DNA from: Phycisphaerae bacterium
GTDB taxonomy: Bacteria; Planctomycetota; Phycisphaerae; FEN-1346
Assembly: GCA_035528235.1 (NCBI GenBank)
Contig: DATKZB010000305.1
Span: 1 to 54,610 of the forward strand
Length of the DNA: 54,610 nucleotides
Reading direction: 5' to 3'
In this document: positions 6,346 through 53,206 of the stretch, in pieces
Layout of the letters: each line of letters opens with the position of its first letter
Numbering within the stretch: position 1 is the first letter of the stretch
Made by a program: the position numbers and the translations under genes
Notes under the pieces: generated by a model
What the model was told of the DNA's origin: nothing
Seen by the model: the letters and a program-made list of their open reading frames with translations, nothing else
Database searches by the model: none

Positions 6346-6519
6346 GGCGTGCCCTCCTTAGCGGGTCCCTAGGCAGCCAGTTTACACCAGGGGCGACGCC
6401 AACGCACGCCATCAAACCGGCGAGGTTGGCCGCCAGGCCCACCAAGACGGCGCGGCGCCCCGACGTATCGGGACGCCGCGCGTGCATTCGTTTCTGCCAT
6501 GCGGCCGCAGAGGCGAGGG

Positions 6520-7911
6520 TTAGATGTTCCACCACCCCTTGCGGTACTCGCGTTTGACGATGGCGTCGGCCTTGGCGCAGCCGGGGCATTTCATCGTTTT
6601 CGGGTTCCAGGTAACCTTCTGGCCGACGCGGACGGCGACGTTGGCCAGGTTCATCGCCTCGACCATGGGCCCCGCGTAGGTGAAGTTGGACTTCGGGAAG
6701 TCCCAGGGCTGTTCGCCGCGGCAGGCCTTGATGAGTTCCTCGCGGTGGCCGGGCGAATCCGGGATCCGCTCGATTTTCTTCATCTCGTCGCCCTTGAACT
6801 CGTTCATCCTGGCGCTCGGGATGAGGTTCGGGCTGTCGGAGTAGTCGCCCTGGACGTAAATCTTGCCCTTGGTGCCGATGAAGAGGTTGCCGCTGCCGCT
6901 CAGTTGCACGCTGTTCGGGTCGCCGGCCTTCTTCTGGTAGGCCGGGTCTTCCTTCATCTCGTCGGGCACGTCGGGCTTGAGACCGCCTTCGTACCAGTAG
7001 GCGGTCCAGGCGGGCTTCTTCCCCTTGGCCGGGAACATCCACTTCACAAGCATCTGCTTCGGGAACGTTTCGTCGCCGAGTTCGACGACCTTGATCGGTT
7101 CGGCGCTAAGCGGCGCGTCGGCCCCCATCGACCACCAAACGTTGTCCCAGGTGTGACAGCCCATGTCGCCGACGGCCCCGCAGCCATAGTCGAACCAGCC
7201 ACGCCACGCGAACGGATGGACCGGGCTGCCCCCGTCGTTCTTGGTGATGTACGGCCGCTTCGGGGCCACGCCCAGCCAGGCGTCCCAGTTGAGGTTCTTG
7301 GGCGCCTCGCCTGTCTTGAAGGGCCCCAGTTTGCCCTGCGGCCACACGGGACGGTTCGTCCAGGTGTGGATCTCCGTGACGTCGCCGATGACGCCCGCGT
7401 TGACCCACTCGACGACGAACCGGATGCCGCGGCCGGCGTGGCCCTGGTTGCCCATCTGGGTGGGCACCTTGTGCTTCTTGGTGGCCTCGGCCAGCATGCG
7501 GGCCTCCCAGACGGAGTGCGTCAGGGGCTTCTCGCAGTAGCAGCCGGCCCCGCGGATGATGGCCGAGTACGCCGCCGGGAAGTGCGTGTGGTCGGGCGTC
7601 GCCACCAGCACCAGGTTCAGCTTCTTGTGGTTATCGTACAGTTTGCGCCAATCGGTATAGGTCTTGGCCTGGGAGTGTTTCTTGGCGAAGTCGCCCATGC
7701 GGCCTTCATCGGCATCGCACATGGCCACAACGTTCTCGCCCGAGGCCATGCCGTGCCCGGCACCGCCCTGGCCGCCGACGCCGATGAGGGCCACGTCGAG
7801 TTTACGGTTCTGGGCGTACGCGCGAAGCGACAGCGGGTCCGACAGGATGGTGACGCCCGCGGCCATGGCCGCGCCCTTCAGAAAACGACGACGACTGATG
7901 GGGTATGACAT
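6520..7911 (-). CDS. Gfo/Idh/MocA family oxidoreductase with Tat signal
   Basis: Start at ATG 7911 (MSYPISRRRFLKGAAMAAG, twin-arginine) with a GGAGGA SD. A Rossmann GVGGQG motif follows, then EKPL. The upstream 84 codons of the listed ORF cover REP elements. Confidence 0.9.
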   Translation of the reverse strand: MSYPISRRRFLKGAAMAAGVTILSDPLSLRAYAQNRKLDVALIGVGGQGGAGHGMASGENVVAMCDADEGRMGDFAKKHSQAKTYTDWRKLYDNHKKLNLVLVATPDHTHFPAAYSAIIRGAGCYCEKPLTHSVWEARMLAEATKKHKVPTQMGNQGHAGRGIRFVVEWVNAGVIGDVTEIHTWTNRPVWPQGKLGPFKTGEAPKNLNWDAWLGVAPKRPYITKNDGGSPVHPFAWRGWFDYGCGAVGDMGCHTWDNVWWSMGADAPLSAEPIKVVELGDETFPKQMLVKWMFPAKGKKPAWTAYWYEGGLKPDVPDEMKEDPAYQKKAGDPNSVQLSGSGNLFIGTKGKIYVQGDYSDSPNLIPSARMNEFKGDEMKKIERIPDSPGHREELIKACRGEQPWDFPKSNFTYAGPMVEAMNLANVAVRVGQKVTWNPKTMKCPGCAKADAIVKREYRKGWWNI

Positions 7912-8135
7912 TTCGGATGTCCTCCGACGACCAGGGTTCTTCTGGGGGTGGGCCGCAGGGCTGCGGCGTCTCCAGAACGTTTGCGGCCCGATGCCGCCGG
8001 CTTTCTCGCCCGGCCGATTGGACGGCCGAACGCTGCTCATATTCCTTAAAACCCTACGACCGAGGCAGGGTTTCGGCAAGACTTTTTCTCGGCCTCGGGC
8101 GACGTGGGCCTTCGCGGGTACCTCGACGCGCCCAA

Positions 8136-19072: not shown

Positions 19073-19220
19073 GGGTGGCATGGTCATCCCGAAGGGTGAC
19101 CATGTGTTTCCCTTCCGAGCACATGGCCACGCAACAGCGTGGCCATGCCACCCGGCCCACGCGAGGCTCAGAACATGGTCACCCAACAGCGGGGTGACCA
19201 TGCCACCCGGCCACCCGGCC
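19073..19220. repeat. REP-like family D cluster (three CATG-based hairpins with CCACCC heads)
   Basis: catggtcatcccgaagggtgaccatg, catggccacgcaacagcgtggccatgccaccc and catggtcacccaacagcggggtgaccatgccaccc. Relatives lie at 34963..35052 and 44386..44472. Confidence 0.8.
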
Positions 19221-34962: not shown

Positions 34963-35052
34963 GGGTGGCATGCCCAGGCCGCCGTTGCCTGGGCATGCTC
35001 CCCGGCCGCGGCACATGCCCACGCCAACAGCGGCGTGGGCATGCCACCCGCC
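34963..35052. repeat. REP-like family D doublet
   Basis: gggtggcatgcccaggccgccgttgcctgggcatgc and catgcccacgccaacagcggcgtgggcatgccacccgcc. Confidence 0.75.
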
Positions 35053-41423: not shown

Positions 41424-41508
41424 GAAACGTCTCCTTTAAGTGTCGCACGGTCCGGCGGCCATTATACCCCGCGGACGGCATCCTGCCGAGAGATTGTCGC
41501 CCGTCGCC

Positions 41509-43098
41509 TTACGGCGGCTCGTTCAACTGGCTCCGCTTCAGCGTGAACTCGTGGACAATCTGGTTGTCGATCGTGCCGATGCGGTACGTCACCTGGGGCT
41601 CGTCGCGGGTCGTGTCGAACGACAGGAGGCCGAACGAGCACGTCTTGGCGTACCCGTACAGCGACTCGCGGATGACCCCGTTGGTGTGGTCGTTGGTGAG
41701 TTTGCTGCTGGAGAACTCGTAGAGCAGGCAGCCGCGGGCCGGCTCGACGTCCCAGAGGTCGGTGCGGTGGCGGTCGGCCGAGAGCAGGACGACGCCGCCG
41801 ACGCGGCGGTCGGCCAGAAACGAGAACAGTTCGTCGCGTTCCTCCATGAATCCGCCCCAGTGGTCCTTCGAGCCGGGCTTGGCATCGAGCGCCCACGGCA
41901 CCGACGAGGCGACGACCTTGAACGTGGCCGTCGACGCCCCCAGGGCCTCCTTCAGCCACGCCTTCTGGACGGGGCCGAGCATGCTAGGCGGCTTGGCCTT
42001 CCGGTCGCGCCAGTAGCGGCAGTCGAGCATGAAGAAGTCGACGTCGCCGATGGCGAACCGGAACCAGCACCCCGGCTGGGCCTCGCCGCCGCCGTACGAC
42101 GGGTTGACCCAGTTCTCGCGGAAGACGTTCAGCACCGCGCGTTTCCACGCCGGCTTGTCGGGGTCCGGGCCGCCGGCGCTGTTGTCGTCGCCGAAGTCGT
42201 GGTCGTCCCAGATGGCGAAGGCGGCCGTCGACGCCGCGAAAGCGCGAAACTCCGGACGCGACCGGCGACGGTAGTAACAGTACCGCTGGACGGTCGGCGA
42301 CTTCGGGGCGTCGATGTACACGTTGTCGCCCATGAACAGCATCGCCAGCGGCCGCCGCGACGCCAGCGTGGTCCACATGCGTTCGTGCTGGGGCGTATAC
42401 CCCGCGCCGCCGCCGAAGATGACGTCGAACGCCGCCGGCTCGCCGGCCTTCGGAAACGTGCGGAACTCGGCCGGGGCGTCGAGCGCCTCGCGGCCATCAA
42501 CCAGCACGCGATAGTGATAGCGCGTGGCCGGCTGCAGACCCGTGACCTCGACGACGGCCGTGAAGTCGGCGTCGGCCTGCGTCCCGGCCGCGCCCCGGCC
42601 GGCGGGCCCGGCCAGGTCGGGCGACTCGCCCACGACCACCTCGACCTGGGCCTCGCGGGCGGTCCGCACCCAGAACCGCGCCCGCGAGTCGGTCACGCTG
42701 CCGACCATCGGGCCGTGGACGAGCAGCGGCGCGTGGTCCTTGGCGAACGCCTGGAAGGCGGGGCTCTCGACGAGCGGCGCCAGGAGGTCCCTGGGGCCCG
42801 CCAGGAACCGGCCGAACGGCAGCCCGCCGGCCACCCCCTGCCGCACGTGCGCCATGGCCCGGTCGATGTCGCCCTGCTGCGCCCAGCCGACCGCCAGGAC
42901 GAAGTGCGACTCGATGTCGTCGGGGTGCTTCCGGAGGTAGGCGTCGGCCGCGGCGATGGCCGGCTCGATCTCACCTTTGGCGATGCGGGTGATCTGCCCG
43001 CGGTGCTCCTTCTTGTACTCCGCCGCACGCGCCGCGACGCCGGCCGCCGCGAGCGCCGCAAGGACCACCAGAAAGGCCGTGCCGACGTGCCTCGTCAT
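41509..43098 (-). CDS. PhoD-family alkaline phosphatase/phosphodiesterase with N-terminal helical (TPR-like) region
   Basis: ATG 43098 has a GGGAGGAG SD and a signal peptide. It carries GDNVYIDAP, WDDHDFGDDNS and LLSADRH metallophosphatase motifs. The start overlaps the upstream stop (ATGA). Confidence 0.85.
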   Translation of the reverse strand: MTRHVGTAFLVVLAALAAAGVAARAAEYKKEHRGQITRIAKGEIEPAIAAADAYLRKHPDDIESHFVLAVGWAQQGDIDRAMAHVRQGVAGGLPFGRFLAGPRDLLAPLVESPAFQAFAKDHAPLLVHGPMVGSVTDSRARFWVRTAREAQVEVVVGESPDLAGPAGRGAAGTQADADFTAVVEVTGLQPATRYHYRVLVDGREALDAPAEFRTFPKAGEPAAFDVIFGGGAGYTPQHERMWTTLASRRPLAMLFMGDNVYIDAPKSPTVQRYCYYRRRSRPEFRAFAASTAAFAIWDDHDFGDDNSAGGPDPDKPAWKRAVLNVFRENWVNPSYGGGEAQPGCWFRFAIGDVDFFMLDCRYWRDRKAKPPSMLGPVQKAWLKEALGASTATFKVVASSVPWALDAKPGSKDHWGGFMEERDELFSFLADRRVGGVVLLSADRHRTDLWDVEPARGCLLYEFSSSKLTNDHTNGVIRESLYGYAKTCSFGLLSFDTTRDEPQVTYRIGTIDNQIVHEFTLKRSQLNEPP

Positions 43099-44339
43099 CT
43101 GCCGCTCCTCCCTGCTGGATCCGCCGCGACCGGGAAGACCCGCATGGCCCGCGGCGGGGCGGTCGGGCAGGCCGCCTCGCACGCGCCGCAACCGTTGCAC
43201 TTCGTCACATCCACATGCGGACAATCATACGGTGCCGAGGCGACCGTGGACTCGACCCGCGCGATGGCCTCGAACGGGCACGCCACCAGGCACGAGGTGC
43301 ATTCCTGCCCGCCCGCCAGCAGGCAGGCCGACAGGTTCACCCGCGCCCGGCCGATGACGCGCCGCCGCTTCGCCTCCAGCGACAGCCGCGCGATGGCCCC
43401 GCTGGGACACACCTGGCCGCAGGCGCGGCAGTCCTCGCGGCAATAGCCGCTCTCGAACACGACGACCGGCGTCAGCAGGCCGGCCACGCCGGAGCCGCCC
43501 AGGTCGGGCCGCAGGATGCCCGTCGGACACGCTCGCACACAGTTGCCGCACCGCACGCACAGACCGTTGAACCGGTCCTCGTCGGCCGCACCGGGCGGTC
43601 GCAGCGGCGGCCCCGCGCCGCCGGCCAGGCGGACCGCCAGCGTCCCCGCGGCGCCCACGCCCAGGCCCAGCACGGCCCGCCGGGCCAGGGCCGGCACCGG
43701 GCCGCGCGAAGACGCCACGGCGGCCGCGCGGCGACGGCGAAACCTGTCGCGCATCAGCCGCCACGGGACCGCCAGGAGGTCCTGCATCCCCCCGAGGGGA
43801 CACAGGCGCCCGCACCAGGCGTGCGGCACGATCAGGCTGACCACCAGGACCGCCGGCAGCCCCATCGCCGCCAGGACCGACGCCACTGTCAGCGGCCACC
43901 GCCACACCCCCAGGAAACCGCTCAGGATCGCCAGCGGGTCGGTCCACAGCAGGACGGGGTACCCCAGGCACGCCCCGCCCAGCGTCGCCAGGACGATCCA
44001 CTGGCCGACGGCCGGCCACCGGGCCAGCCGCGGCGTCGATGCGCGGCGCGCGCGGCCAAGGGTCTCCGACACGAGCCCCACCGGGCACGCCCATCGGCAG
44101 AACCACCGGGCACGGAGGCACGCGACGACCAGCAGCGGCACGGCGATGAGCGCGACGGCGCCGACCGTCCGCGTAGCCACCGCCGACGCCACGCCCACGA
44201 ACGGGCTCGCCGCCGGCAACACGAGCAGGCCCGGCGTCCACGACACGAGGGGAACCGACAGCAGCACGACCGCCGCCAGGACCGCGACCCGGGCCGCCAG
44301 CCGCAGACGCGCCGCGCCGCACTCAACCCGCTGCGCCAT
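43095..44339 (-). CDS. Membrane-bound polyferredoxin (NapH/MauN-like, 4Fe-4S binding)
   Basis: TM helices carry CRWACPVG and WCGRLCPLG motifs. The C-terminal ferredoxin cluster motifs are CVRCGNCVRACP, CRACGQVCP, CTSCLVACP and CNGCGACEAACP. Confidence 0.8.
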   Translation of the reverse strand: MAQRVECGAARLRLAARVAVLAAVVLLSVPLVSWTPGLLVLPAASPFVGVASAVATRTVGAVALIAVPLLVVACLRARWFCRWACPVGLVSETLGRARRASTPRLARWPAVGQWIVLATLGGACLGYPVLLWTDPLAILSGFLGVWRWPLTVASVLAAMGLPAVLVVSLIVPHAWCGRLCPLGGMQDLLAVPWRLMRDRFRRRRAAAVASSRGPVPALARRAVLGLGVGAAGTLAVRLAGGAGPPLRPPGAADEDRFNGLCVRCGNCVRACPTGILRPDLGGSGVAGLLTPVVVFESGYCREDCRACGQVCPSGAIARLSLEAKRRRVIGRARVNLSACLLAGGQECTSCLVACPFEAIARVESTVASAPYDCPHVDVTKCNGCGACEAACPTAPPRAMRVFPVAADPAGRSGR

Positions 44340-44385
44340 GCCACGCTCCGTGCCGGTGCTCCGTCAACTGCCAACAAATGAATAG

Positions 44386-44472
44386 CCGGGTGGCATGGTC
44401 ACGCTGTTGCGTGACCATGGGCCCCCGGGGAAAGATCCATGGTCACCCTTCGGGATGACCATGCCACCCGCC
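44386..44472. repeat. REPIN-like family D doublet (heads outward)
   Basis: ccgggtgg-catggtcacgctgttgcgtgaccatg ... catggtcacccttcgggatgaccatg-ccacccgcc. Confidence 0.8.
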
Positions 44473-44503
44473 TCAAGAGGGACTGACCCAATGGTAGTCC
44501 AGC

Positions 44504-45118
44504 CTACTCCCGCTTACGTGACTTTTTGCCAAAGGCGGGTAGGGATGCGTTCATCTTCTCGACCTGGGCCCGTGTAGCGTCGAAGAAATCCCAGAATGTT
44601 TCCGCGGTCCCCGACGCGAACGCATCGCCTTTCTCGGCGATCACCAGGACGAACTCGTTCACGGAGGCGAAATCCCGGATGTACTTCCAGCCCATCCATC
44701 CCTTGGTTTTTCTGTAACCCTCTTCCAGAAGCGATTGCCGCAGATCGGCCACTGCCTTCTCGGCCACCTGCGGAACCGCGGGCGGCAGGCGAATCCCCTG
44801 ATAGAGATGATAGCGGCTACGCCCCTCCTCCTCTCCGAACTCGTACCGAAACACGTTCGTTGAGTCCTTCGCCATCTTGGGACAAAGCACAGTCCCCAAG
44901 AGGGTGCCGTCTTCCTTCTTGTGCAACTCCTGCTGCCACCTGTCATGAAGGGCGCGATCTTCAAGCCTCCGCTGCAGGTTGGCTCGTACGCCCTCCCAGA
45001 ATGAATTCCCCAGTCGTTGCATGACTGCGTCAATGTGGTCCGATATTTCCAGCGCCATCGCCAAATTCTCCTTCCGGGCCAGAAAATCACATATCGCATT
45101 TTCGTATTCAGTTGTCAT
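44504..45118 (-). CDS. Hypothetical 204-aa protein, partner of the PD-(D/E)XK-like gene
   Basis: ATG 45118 (MTTEYENAICDF) overlaps the upstream gene by 11 nt. The composition is coding-like with a charged C-terminal tail (GKKSRKRE). I recognise no motif, and G+C is lower than in neighbouring genes. Confidence 0.65.
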   Translation of the reverse strand: MTTEYENAICDFLARKENLAMALEISDHIDAVMQRLGNSFWEGVRANLQRRLEDRALHDRWQQELHKKEDGTLLGTVLCPKMAKDSTNVFRYEFGEEEGRSRYHLYQGIRLPPAVPQVAEKAVADLRQSLLEEGYRKTKGWMGWKYIRDFASVNEFVLVIAEKGDAFASGTAETFWDFFDATRAQVEKMNASLPAFGKKSRKRE

Positions 45119-46025
45119 CAGTGCTCTCCTCGTGGACCATGGCCTGAATCGTCTCAATGTACTGTGACACCACCGCGCGCACACGGTCTGCCTTAACGTC
45201 CGGCAAAGCCGCTTGGAGCATCCGCAGAATGCCCGTACGATAGGAGACCCGAACGTACGGAACATCGGAGGCGCTCCTGGCCGGCCGTCCCTCCGGAGTC
45301 AGAAACACCAGGTGCTGGCGCGGATACGCTGCGTCATAGCCACGCAGCCACCGGGCGTAGCGGCGTATCTGGTCTGCCTGCTCGGAAGCGTAGACTTTAT
45401 TCTCGACTGCGATGCGGTATCCAATCGAAGGCGCCGAGATCACAAGGTCAATTATGCCGAACGGCGTGAACCGCTGCGTATCTACGATCCACACTTCCTT
45501 CTCGTGGCCTTCCGGTGGTTCCTCGAACGTAGGGTCCTCAGAGCAGCATCGCAGGAACTCCCGCAAGAATAGGAAGCCTTGTGCATGTGCGCCTCGGGGG
45601 TCAAGGAGGTCGGCCAGGATCGGCGTGTGGGTCTTGTCCTCGTCGCCCTCGACGCCGAGCAAATAAAAGATGTTGAACGCCGGCGCGGCTGTCCGTTCCT
45701 GAACTCCAGCCTCGGCCTGAACCGAGGACAATTGATCGCACAACCGCCCGAACTCGCTACGGAATATTGCTGACCGTGGGCCCGCCCATGCCGCCTCCAG
45801 CAAGCGAAAGCGTTCGAACAAGGCCTGCATACTTTCCTCTCGCAGGGCCGATGATGGTTCCGCGTCTTGGCGAACGCGTAGGGCTCGGCACCCATCGAAC
45901 AGGCGCTGCACATCTTCCAGGGCCTGGCGGGGGTAAGCGGTGCAGAAGGCCCGGTAGCGGCCAAGGAAATCGCGCAGCGCCCCAAGCCCGCGCGGGTGCT
46001 CGCGCAATGGTCTCTCGGTTAGCAT
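45108..46025 (-). CDS. PD-(D/E)XK nuclease superfamily protein (PF14281/PDDEXK_4-like)
   Basis: Start chosen at ATG 46025, because the longer ORF runs through a REP hairpin. The motif chain is FNIFYLLGVEGDEDKTHTPILADLLDP, GIIDLVISAP, AVENKVYASEQADQIRRYARWL and LVFLTPEG. This matches the D...E.K core and flanks of that family as I recall it. Confidence 0.7.
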   Translation of the reverse strand: MLTERPLREHPRGLGALRDFLGRYRAFCTAYPRQALEDVQRLFDGCRALRVRQDAEPSSALREESMQALFERFRLLEAAWAGPRSAIFRSEFGRLCDQLSSVQAEAGVQERTAAPAFNIFYLLGVEGDEDKTHTPILADLLDPRGAHAQGFLFLREFLRCCSEDPTFEEPPEGHEKEVWIVDTQRFTPFGIIDLVISAPSIGYRIAVENKVYASEQADQIRRYARWLRGYDAAYPRQHLVFLTPEGRPARSASDVPYVRVSYRTGILRMLQAALPDVKADRVRAVVSQYIETIQAMVHEESTDDN

Positions 46026-46140
46026 GCCCAAACCCAAGTACTTCGGAAGGATACGGATACGGTAATGCTTGGGGTGAGCCGTTGTCAAGACCCCAAGAGA
46101 CCGGGCCGGCGGGCGCCGAGCGAACCCCTGTCCCATGAGA

Positions 46141-46173
46141 AGAGCACGGCCGGACAAGCCGGCCGTGGCACAC
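46141..46173. repeat. REP-like family E hairpin
   Basis: agagcacggccggacaagccggccgtggcacac; a second copy lies at 49091..49126 (agagcacggccgggcaagaccggccgtggcacacgc). Confidence 0.8.
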
Positions 46174-46271
46174 TTGGGGCGGCAGCGCGGGCAATTCGCG
46201 GTTGAACGCGGGCCCCGGGCACGGCTAGAATACGGGCTGGTGTCACGCCATCAACCAGGAGAATGGGGACG

Positions 46272-52637: not shown

Positions 52638-52714
52638 GGGGGAGTAGCTCAGTCTGGTAGAGCAACGGCCTTTTAAGCCGTGGGCCGAGGGTTCGAATCC
52701 CTCCTCCCTCACCA
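52638..52714 (+). tRNA. tRNA-Lys (anticodon UUU)
   Basis: Cloverleaf folded by hand: acceptor gggggag/ctccctc, D-arm gctc..gagc, anticodon stem acggc/gccgt with loop CTTTTAA, T-arm gaggg-ttcgaat-ccctc, encoded CCA. Confidence 0.9.
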
Positions 52715-52740
52715 TGTAATCTGACAACTGAATACGGCGT

Positions 52741-52815
52741 GGCCCCATCGTCCAGTGGTTAGGACACGGCCCTTTCAAGGCCGCGACACGGGTTCGAGTC
52801 CCGTTGGGGTCACCA
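52741..52815 (+). tRNA. tRNA-Glu (anticodon UUC)
   Basis: Acceptor ggcccca/tggggtc, anticodon stem cggcc/ggccg with loop CTTTCAA, T-arm acggg-ttcgagt-cccgt, encoded CCA. It is close to the E. coli tRNA-Glu layout. Confidence 0.9.
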
Positions 52816-52860
52816 AGAAGATCCTCGATTTCCGATCGGCGATTTTCGATTGGCCGTTTC

Positions 52861-53007
52861 GGATCTGAGATCTCAGATTGTCGATTGACGATCTTCGGCC
52901 GGCGGTCTCGGATCTGAGATTTCAGATTTTCGATTGGCGATCTTCGGTTGGTGGTCTTGGATCTGAGATTTCAGATTTTCGATTGGCGATCTTCGGTTGG
53001 TGGTCTT
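52861..53007. repeat. Three tandem 49-bp units (AT-rich, GATC-rich)
   Basis: Units lie at 52861..52909, 52910..52958 and 52959..53007. Units 2 and 3 are identical (ggatctgagatttcagattttcgattggcgatcttcggttggtggtctt). Unit 1 is diverged and contains the 16-nt palindrome atctgagatctcagat. A partial copy lies upstream at 52826..52860. Confidence 0.9.
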
Positions 53008-53040
53008 GGGTGCCGAGAAAGGCCCCGGCCCGGGCCATCC

Positions 53041-53124
53041 GAAATCTGAAGTCCGCAATCTGCAATCTGAAATCTGCAATCTGAGATCTGCAATCTGAGA
53101 TCTGCAATCTGCAATCTGAAATGC
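53041..53124. repeat. Twelve tandem heptamers G(C/A)(A/G)ATCT
   Basis: The series gaaatct gaagtcc gcaatct gcaatct gaaatct gcaatct gagatct gcaatct gagatct gcaatct gcaatct gaaatgc is the reverse complement of the agattt/cagattt motifs inside the 49-bp units. Confidence 0.9.
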
Positions 53125-53131
53125 CGTTTCT

Positions 53132-53206
53132 GGCCCCATCGTCCAGCGGTTAGGACACGGCCCTCTCAAGGCCGGGACACGGGTTCGAGTCCCGTTGGGG
53201 TCACCA
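53132..53206 (+). tRNA. tRNA-Glu (anticodon CUC)
   Basis: Same scaffold as 52741..52815, with anticodon loop CTCTCAA and a few substitutions; CCA is encoded. Confidence 0.9.

Follow-up and report, generated by a model that had tools for sequence, protein, structure and literature searches.

Introduction

PDC-S26, a candidate defence system catalogued in PADLOC, is encoded by a single gene of approximately 350-450 amino acids (aa). PDC systems are defined by their embedding in BREX, DISARM or Type I restriction-modification (RM) systems (Payne et al., bioRxiv 10.1101/2024.01.29.577857). Part of the family is also described by Pfam PF14281 (PDDEXK_4), which covers the nuclease core only and was entered as function unknown by Steczkiewicz et al. 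(2012). Here we describe a pair of overlapping genes on contig DATKZB010000305.1 of a Phycisphaerae bacterium (Planctomycetota; assembly GCA_035528235.1), analysed within a stretch of 54,610 nucleotides (nt; hereafter the window), which appears from its sequence to be a two-gene form of the catalogued candidate system PDC-S26/PF14281 and not a categorically new one. The overall reading that we favour, by a modest degree, is that of a horizontally acquired two-subunit nuclease that probably acts in defence.

Both genes lie on the minus strand. Gene 1 (45108..46025; 305 aa from its ATG; NCBI entry HUU11299.1, PD-(D/E)XK nuclease family protein) encodes the PF14281 nuclease that corresponds to the N-terminal half of the PDC-S26 family, and gene 2 (44504..45118; 204 aa; HUU11298.1, hypothetical protein) encodes the C-terminal domain of the same family. 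The two open reading frames (ORFs) are in different frames and overlap by 11 nt (ATGACAACTGA), in agreement with the coordinates and overlap given in a first-pass annotation made from the letters of the window, and the pair is present once in the window.

Relationship to PDC-S26 and its fused relatives

Gene 1 matched nine PDC-S26 hidden Markov models (HMMs) of PADLOC over model positions ~8-219 of ~400 (best E=8.4e-36), and gene 2 matched these models over positions 215-374 (best E=1.8e-9, with PDLC04983). Since the matches of the two genes are collinear, the 204-aa protein is the C-terminal half of the same family; the first-pass annotation had treated it as an orphan in which it recognised no motif and had been unable to match the pair to a named system, and both statements are superseded by these matches and by the fusion of the two halves in relatives. 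The PDC-S26 models span 389-413 positions, a full length that is covered only by gene 1 and gene 2 together, and the boundary between the genes lies exactly at the predicted domain boundary of the family. What had been described as a nuclease plus an orphan can now be placed, as a catalogued defence candidate in its two-gene form.

Relatives that carry both halves in one chain are 445-598 aa long. A search with a conceptual fusion of the two window proteins recovered a 598-aa fused protein (P0003) that aligns with both of them, its nuclease core being 49% identical and its C-terminal domain 25-28%. Three other fused proteins (P0012, P0020 and P0022; 448-457 aa) match PDLC04983 over most of its 413 positions, starting at 22-30 and ending at 364-407, with E values down to 8e-65. 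The fused relatives at 44% core identity match PDC-S26 nearly end to end, and they sit in Type I RM operons.

The window form departs from PDC-S26 in three respects. PDC-S26 belongs to the single-gene ("S") class, whereas the window encodes two polypeptides from two ORFs in different frames, the second with an internal start codon and a ribosome-binding site (Shine-Dalgarno motif) of its own. Gene 1 also carries ~60 extra N-terminal residues. Finally, the fused proteins P0012 and P0020 are embedded in or adjoin Type I RM systems, whereas the window unit is not embedded in any defence system, its neighbours being purD and an operon that includes a Fer4 gene and PhoD (the Fer4-PhoD operon).

Conservation of the split

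We consider it highly probable that the pair is a naturally split PDC-S26-like unit. The closest relatives of gene 1, P0001 (298 aa) and P0002 (291 aa), with 58-60% identity, are likewise stand-alone N-terminal halves, and a gene 2 homologue follows each of them. In locus L001/L002 a 291-aa protein is separated by a 13-nt gap from a 203-aa partner with 59% identity to gene 2, and in L003/L004 a 298-aa protein overlaps by 17 nt a partner with 55% identity to gene 2. Other split units occur in L069 (241 + 198 aa, 13-nt gap; partner 24% identical to gene 2 in alignment A5), in L072 (NCBI metagenome-assembled genome (MAG) GCA_030667405.1; 251 + 200 aa, 11-nt overlap; partner 32% identical, E=2e-31) and in L073 (240 aa and a partial partner, 11-nt gap; 40% identity over 67 aa). 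Within the end of gene 1 in the window, a Shine-Dalgarno motif, GAGGAG (45126..45131, minus strand), lies 7 nt before the ATG of gene 2. The same distance of exactly 7 nt to the second ATG was found in all four junctions read, with the motifs GAGGAG in the window, AAGGAG in both L001 and L003, and GCGGAG in L069. The cassette recurs at 98-100% protein identity in four assemblies besides that of the window, and the identical junction is seen in four independent assemblies of the same organism.

A single PDC-S26 gene broken by a frameshift, be it in a pseudogene or through an assembly error, would also be expected to give two ORFs in different frames, with an 11-nt overlap and collinear matches to one model. 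However, five or more other lineages, at 32-60% identity, show the same break point, in three geometries (a 13-nt gap, and overlaps of 11 and 17 nt), the start codon and Shine-Dalgarno motif keep their fixed distance in each of the junctions read, and the junction is reproduced in independent assemblies. Because three junction geometries share one conserved initiation signal, a frameshift pseudogene or assembly error is effectively refuted, and we assign it a negligible probability: the split, the start codon and the Shine-Dalgarno motif are all conserved. The first-pass view of the two genes as one unit is borne out by the occurrence of a conserved, translationally linked pair in other lineages.

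The extent of the split form was assessed by an exhaustive HMMER profile search of 1.84 billion representatives, using a profile that spanned all of P0003, so that match counts mostly reflect the nuclease domain. An HMM of the C-terminal domain served to classify the 149 best library representatives, among which there were 114 nuclease-only proteins (<=310 aa, mostly ~240 aa), some of the shorter of which may be fragments, together with 21 fused proteins, 3 consisting of the C-terminal domain alone and 11 with other architectures. Every nuclease-only locus that was inspected had the partner gene directly downstream. Ordered by identity to gene 1, split and fused forms interleave (P0001/P0002, split, 58-60%; P0015, split, 47%; P0003/P0010, fused, 44-49%; P0012, fused, 44%; P0014/P0019, split, 40-44%), which suggests that fission or fusion occurred more than once. 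The split form thus appears to be common, and single-gene detection rules probably under-count it.

The spread of the family across phyla is patchy. Word-indexed protein searches for gene 2 returned only 2-4 proteins, and there were no close relatives among 185,579 GTDB species genomes, a set that excludes the MAG of the window itself (best 25-35% identity). The second proteins of more distant split units (182 aa in cyanobacteria, 144 aa in L012) showed no homology to gene 2 that hhalign could detect. In two cyanobacterial genomes (L007, 9992-11687; L009, 8620-10315), a gene for a 227-aa PF14281 nuclease is followed after 3 nt by the 182-aa ORF and then by a NADAR-domain gene, and these two genes may constitute a different partner set for the same nuclease.

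Acquisition of the cassette

The pair occupies a compositional island. A 1522-nt stretch over the two genes has the lowest G+C content of the whole 54.6 kb (0.593, versus a median of 0.703 with a standard deviation of 0.027), and G+C at third codon positions is 0.70-0.71 in the pair versus 0.92-0.95 in purD, the Fer4 gene, PhoD and a radical S-adenosylmethionine (SAM) gene. The low G+C that the first-pass annotation had noted at the pair is therefore real, and the two 60-nt lines it quoted measure 41.7% and 53.3%.

The borders of the island were located by blastn comparison with L074, a near-isogenic locus whose genes come in the same order and whose DNA is 92-96% identical on either side of the island. 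The alignment breaks off at 46178 and is picked up again at 44304, which delimits a replacement cassette (44305..46177; 1873 bp, G+C 0.605) containing both genes, a paired hairpin repeat (REPIN) and a second hairpin. The segment that it replaced measures 1569 bp in L074 (G+C 0.725) and holds a gene for a 465-aa flavin adenine dinucleotide (FAD)-dependent oxidoreductase and the 5' end of the Fer4 gene (~40 nt). The lost gene (L074, 6611-8041) encodes an oxidoreductase with a twin-arginine translocation (TAT) signal, and the Fer4 gene of the window (43095-44339) overlaps the cassette over 44305-44339. Because the cassette replaced the beginning of the Fer4 gene, the Fer4 protein has acquired a new start and N-terminus, and it is 414 aa long in the window versus 434 aa in L074.

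In ~34 related metagenomic loci the FAD-dependent oxidoreductase gene (52-81% identity) immediately precedes the Fer4 gene; it is found nowhere in the window. Ten of 15 relatives with purD-Fer4 synteny carry it at native G+C, the other five have an empty intergenic region of 120-330 nt, and the nuclease pair was found in none of the 15. Given that the oxidoreductase is present in these 10 relatives and ~34 loci and the pair in none of the syntenic relatives, the oxidoreductase state is ancestral and the pair is a lineage-specific gain by replacement, and its recent horizontal acquisition is almost certain. The two contigs, one with the cassette and one with the oxidoreductase gene, provide a clean natural instance of minimal-cassette replacement in Planctomycetota. 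To our knowledge, defence systems have been little studied in this phylum.

No target-site duplication or terminal inverted repeats were found around the cassette, a simple scan revealed no intrinsic terminator, and a phage origin received no support from PHROG (no match) or IMG/VR contigs (no relative). In the window lineage, the operon of Fer4, PhoD, ACT-domain and sulfatase genes is left without its first gene and its upstream region. As these were replaced by the cassette, transcription of the Fer4-PhoD genes must either start inside the cassette or read through it.

The putative nuclease subunit

Profile searches, which the first-pass annotation had proposed as a check on its assignment of gene 1 to PF14281, placed this Pfam family on residues 117-289 well above the gathering score (E=2.6e-20; 73.6 bits versus a cut-off of 22.3; model positions 1-181 of 183), and the four motifs of the chain that it had listed were found at residues 117, 192, 206 and 239. 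The predicted active-site codons (D193, E208-x-K210 and Q219-xxx-Y223) occupy 45357..45449 on the minus strand, counted from the ATG at 46025. All five of these residues are invariant in an alignment of eight family sequences (A1; 25-61% identity), as are E129, H147 and the FLTPxG strand. Gene 1 is a predicted PD-(D/E)XK nuclease with an intact D...ExK motif.

Nucleases of the RecB family are reported by Aravind et al. (2000) to share a pattern that consists of an acidic residue in the first helix, a D, an ExK and then a QxxxY. We take the D...ExK...QxxxY pattern of gene 1 to be that of these nucleases, a family that includes the RecB/AddB nuclease domains, Cas4 and lambda exonuclease, and the counterpart residues in gene 1 would be E129, D193, E208/K210 and Q219/Y223. 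Unlike the RecB-family systems, the window unit has no helicase partner and no Fe-S cysteine cluster of the Cas4/AddB type. The gene 1 sequence matched no solved RecB-like structure in a PDB sequence search.

The start of gene 1 differs between annotators, with candidates at ATG 46025 (305 aa), TTG 46007 (NCBI, 299 aa) and ATG 45830 (240 aa), the last of which has a GAGG Shine-Dalgarno motif; the frame is open upstream as far as TTG 46157. The first 65 residues are kept at the protein level in P0001 and P0002, in which gaps are multiples of three and the position of the window M66 is occupied by valine. A long form is likely, since both of these relatives conserve the N-terminal extension. Such an extension had been recognised in the first-pass annotation and put at ~130 aa, which overstates its size: ~50-60 of the residues ahead of the Pfam domain represent the usual N-terminal helices of the family, and the true extra stretch is ~55-65 aa. 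An origin of the extension by internal duplication of these helices found no support (local score 27 versus 22.4 +/- 4.4, reached by 147 of 1000 shuffles).

The putative C-terminal subunit

Homologues of gene 2 exist both alone (P0009, P0017, P0054 and the partners in L001, L069 and L072) and in fused form (P0003, P0012, P0020 and P0022). Its conserved positions (F12, L13, F40, W41, W61, L126, W176 and N190) are hydrophobic or aromatic and not catalytic-looking, and the protein is probably a non-catalytic subunit. An AlphaFold2 (AF2) model built with an alignment of 17 split and fused relatives was confident (predicted local distance difference test (pLDDT) 92.3; predicted template-modelling score (pTM) 0.84), and a single-sequence model was poor (pLDDT 49.5). 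The predicted alpha/beta structure comprises two N-terminal helices, one of them of 39 residues, a four-stranded sheet, a helix, a fifth strand and a long C-terminal helix.

Structure prediction and a Foldseek search of the 204-aa protein, as advised in the first-pass annotation, thus delivered a confident model with no match at E<1e-3 in PDB or BFVD. PDB sequence searches were empty, and neither Pfam nor NCBIfam identified a helix-turn-helix (HTH), ribbon-helix-helix (RHH) or other DNA-binding domain; the domain as such has no Pfam family. Foldseek matches to CapZ and to YbjN/type III secretion chaperone-like proteins were recurrent but weak (template-modelling score 0.2-0.36) and were discounted as evidence. 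With a confident model and no known fold match, the C-terminal domain is worth structural characterisation.

Genomic context and proposed function

Neighbouring genes could be read for three of the fused relatives, and two of these three are located within or next to Type I RM operons. In the P0012 locus the order is hsdR, 292-aa gene, hsdM, 230-aa gene, P0012, hsdS, which places the fused gene between hsdM and hsdS. P0020 is followed directly by hsdR and a YgjP-like gene and preceded by a DUF5655/NucS-like gene. The two additional genes of the P0012 locus (L070, 5014-5892, 292 aa, between hsdR and hsdM; 7312-8004, 230 aa, between hsdM and P0012) had no Pfam or PADLOC match. In P0003 the nuclease is preceded by an extra N-terminal domain of ~150 aa (residues 1-165; L005, 8001-8495; no Pfam family), which recurs at residues 119-276 of P0035 together with EVE and AAA_5 (McrB-like) domains and at residues 2-154 of P0046, where it is fused to a NOV_C nuclease. 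It may serve restriction-type systems as a module that reads nucleic acids.

Two described systems offer partial parallels. In CapRel-type systems the toxin-antitoxin components are fused in one chain, and as in these systems an effector and a non-catalytic domain are here found both fused and split. The insertion of the fused relatives among or next to hsd genes resembles that of PrrC in EcoprrI, a defence gene embedded in a Type I RM operon (Payne et al., 10.1101/2024.01.29.577857). The window proteins have no sequence or fold relationship to CapRel or PrrC, and the window copy is stand-alone and bears no sign of autoinhibition or of a phage trigger.

We propose that the products of the two genes are the subunits of a single enzyme, a naturally split member of PF14281/PDC-S26, in which gene 1 would supply the catalytic subunit, a RecB-like PD-(D/E)XK nuclease, and gene 2, translated from its own conserved ribosome-binding site within the end of gene 1, would supply a protein that binds it. 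Because relatives carry both parts as one chain, Rosetta-stone logic suggests that the two proteins interact, and they probably form a complex; the fusion and fission of the halves amount to a free prediction of protein interaction. The non-catalytic subunit could be a regulatory or target-sensing part that restrains or directs the nuclease. This unit entered the Phycisphaerae lineage recently, as a 1.87-kb cassette that replaced the FAD-oxidoreductase gene between purD and the Fer4-PhoD operon. Most likely it would defend against invading DNA such as phages and plasmids, as a stand-alone version of a nuclease module that relatives carry within Type I RM operons. We rate a defence function at slightly under even chances, since the family-level context supports it and the context in the window is neutral. 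A more far-reaching version, which we regard as rather unlikely, would make gene 2 a previously undescribed fold that acts as a detachable sensor or gate of a RecB-like nuclease, and PF14281/PDC-S26 a widespread immune module that repeatedly switches between fused and split forms, the latter, which make up most of the close representatives in metagenomes, being missed by the single-gene rules of defence finders. The presence of separate genes allows the nuclease alone, the partner alone and both together to be compared.

Several points weigh against a two-subunit defence nuclease. The window is not a defence island, its neighbouring genes being purD, the radical SAM gene, Fer4, PhoD, the ACT-domain gene and sulfatases. 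Split relatives adjoin housekeeping genes (carB in L003, lytB in L072 and a HEAT/AP_endonuc_2 gene in L001), and the gene neighbourhoods of distant genomic relatives (Cyanobacteria, Alphaproteobacteria, Deltaproteobacteria, Latescibacterota and Phycisphaerae) are mixed. A PADLOC scan of five distant loci gave WYL, mad2, PDC-S27 and UvrD-like matches among many metabolic genes, which settles nothing. All 145 PDC systems are called untested candidates by their authors (Payne et al., 10.1101/2024.01.29.577857), and the literature searched contained no functional account of any PF14281/PDC-S26 protein and no experiment in support of defence. As to the enzyme itself, the physical interaction of the two proteins is deduced from the fusion in relatives, the fold of gene 1 is predicted from its sequence, and the role given to the C-terminal domain is a guess, since searches by structure and by sequence yielded no significant match of known function. 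The defence-type architecture proposed in the first-pass annotation accordingly finds support in the family, through the PDC-S26 matches and the two fused relatives at Type I RM operons, but not in the surroundings of the window copy.

Alternative explanations

A toxin-antitoxin or addiction module, in which the nuclease is a toxin neutralised by the 204-aa partner and the pair persists selfishly, with or without an anti-phage role, would account for a compact bicistronic unit of overlapping genes with a non-catalytic partner, acquired horizontally as a minimal cassette and sitting alone among housekeeping genes in several lineages. This explanation is less easily reconciled with the fusion of both parts in 21 of the 149 best representatives, which is unusual for classical type II pairs although CapRel-type fusions exist, or with a partner in which Pfam recognises no DNA-binding antitoxin domain such as HTH or RHH. 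The putative toxin gene also comes first in the order. We consider such a module improbable. A cellular nuclease of DNA repair or recombination, accessory in the manner of RecB/AddB and with no role against mobile elements, is suggested by the RecB-like motif set (D, ExK, QxxxY) and by one distant relative (L012) that adjoins an AddAB-like helicase-nuclease pair; yet a repair function is difficult to align with the absence of the pair from the 92-96% identical relative and from all 15 syntenic relatives, with its foreign codon composition, with the patchy distribution across phyla or with the two fused relatives inside or beside Type I RM operons, and we give this explanation a low probability.

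An equally low probability attaches to the cassette being a functionless passenger, that is, recently transferred DNA that has not been purged and is unexpressed or inactive in its host. The replacement is indeed recent, as seen from flanks that are 92-96% identical to L074 and from a composition still far from that of the host, and it destroyed an otherwise conserved operon gene. Neither frame is disrupted, however, the catalytic residues are all present and the internal Shine-Dalgarno motif is preserved. The cassette is shared by four further assemblies at 98-100% protein identity, and cluster members differ by few substitutions and show no disruption. The cassette also lies upstream of the Fer4-PhoD operon and is co-directional with it, and is for this reason probably transcribed. 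A horizontally acquired two-subunit nuclease, probably in defence, remains our preferred reading.

Repeat elements and other features of the window

The first-pass annotation regarded the pair as bounded by repetitive extragenic palindromic (REP) elements, namely a REPIN near 44386..44472 and a hairpin of a repeat family at 46141..46173. The REPIN was found at 44384..44473, between gene 2 and the Fer4 gene, and consists of two 37-nt inverted arms, each of which is a hairpin. Its core, GGTGGCATGGTCAC, has six copies in the window versus 0.5 expected, and a near-identical copy of the element lies at 19074-19152. Sites of this family, characterised by the same core and by paired inverted hairpins, occur in the window at 19074-19207, 35035-35048 and 44384-44473, and the core is also present in a more distant relative (L034, 1596-1689 and 2347-2360), upstream of the Fer4 gene. 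The repeat family of which the REPIN is a member is native to the host genome and its clade.

On the purD side, a GC-rich hairpin with a 9-bp stem and a 5-nt loop (46145..46167) lies 11 nt inside the cassette edge. The structure itself was thus correctly recognised, whereas its membership of a repeat family found no support, since a scan of the window that allowed up to 3 mismatches yielded no other copy of the hairpin. REP elements as borders of the island were rejected, since the REPIN is genome- and clade-wide and both elements lie within the replaced segment. At the equivalent position L074 has a different hairpin (~6475-6500), with CACGGCCGG...CCGGCCGTG in the window versus TAGGCCGCG...CGCGGCCTA in L074. 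These hairpin elements may mark a recombination-prone spot at the purD-side breakpoint.

Elsewhere in the window, very long spurious ORFs run opposite real genes on both strands of 41440-44385 (for example 668 aa at 41440-43446, plus strand). ORFs of this kind are typical of DNA with 70-80% G+C, and mechanically generated ORF lists need care here. Three tRNA genes are clustered at 52638-53203 on the plus strand (Rfam RF00005, 64-75 bits).

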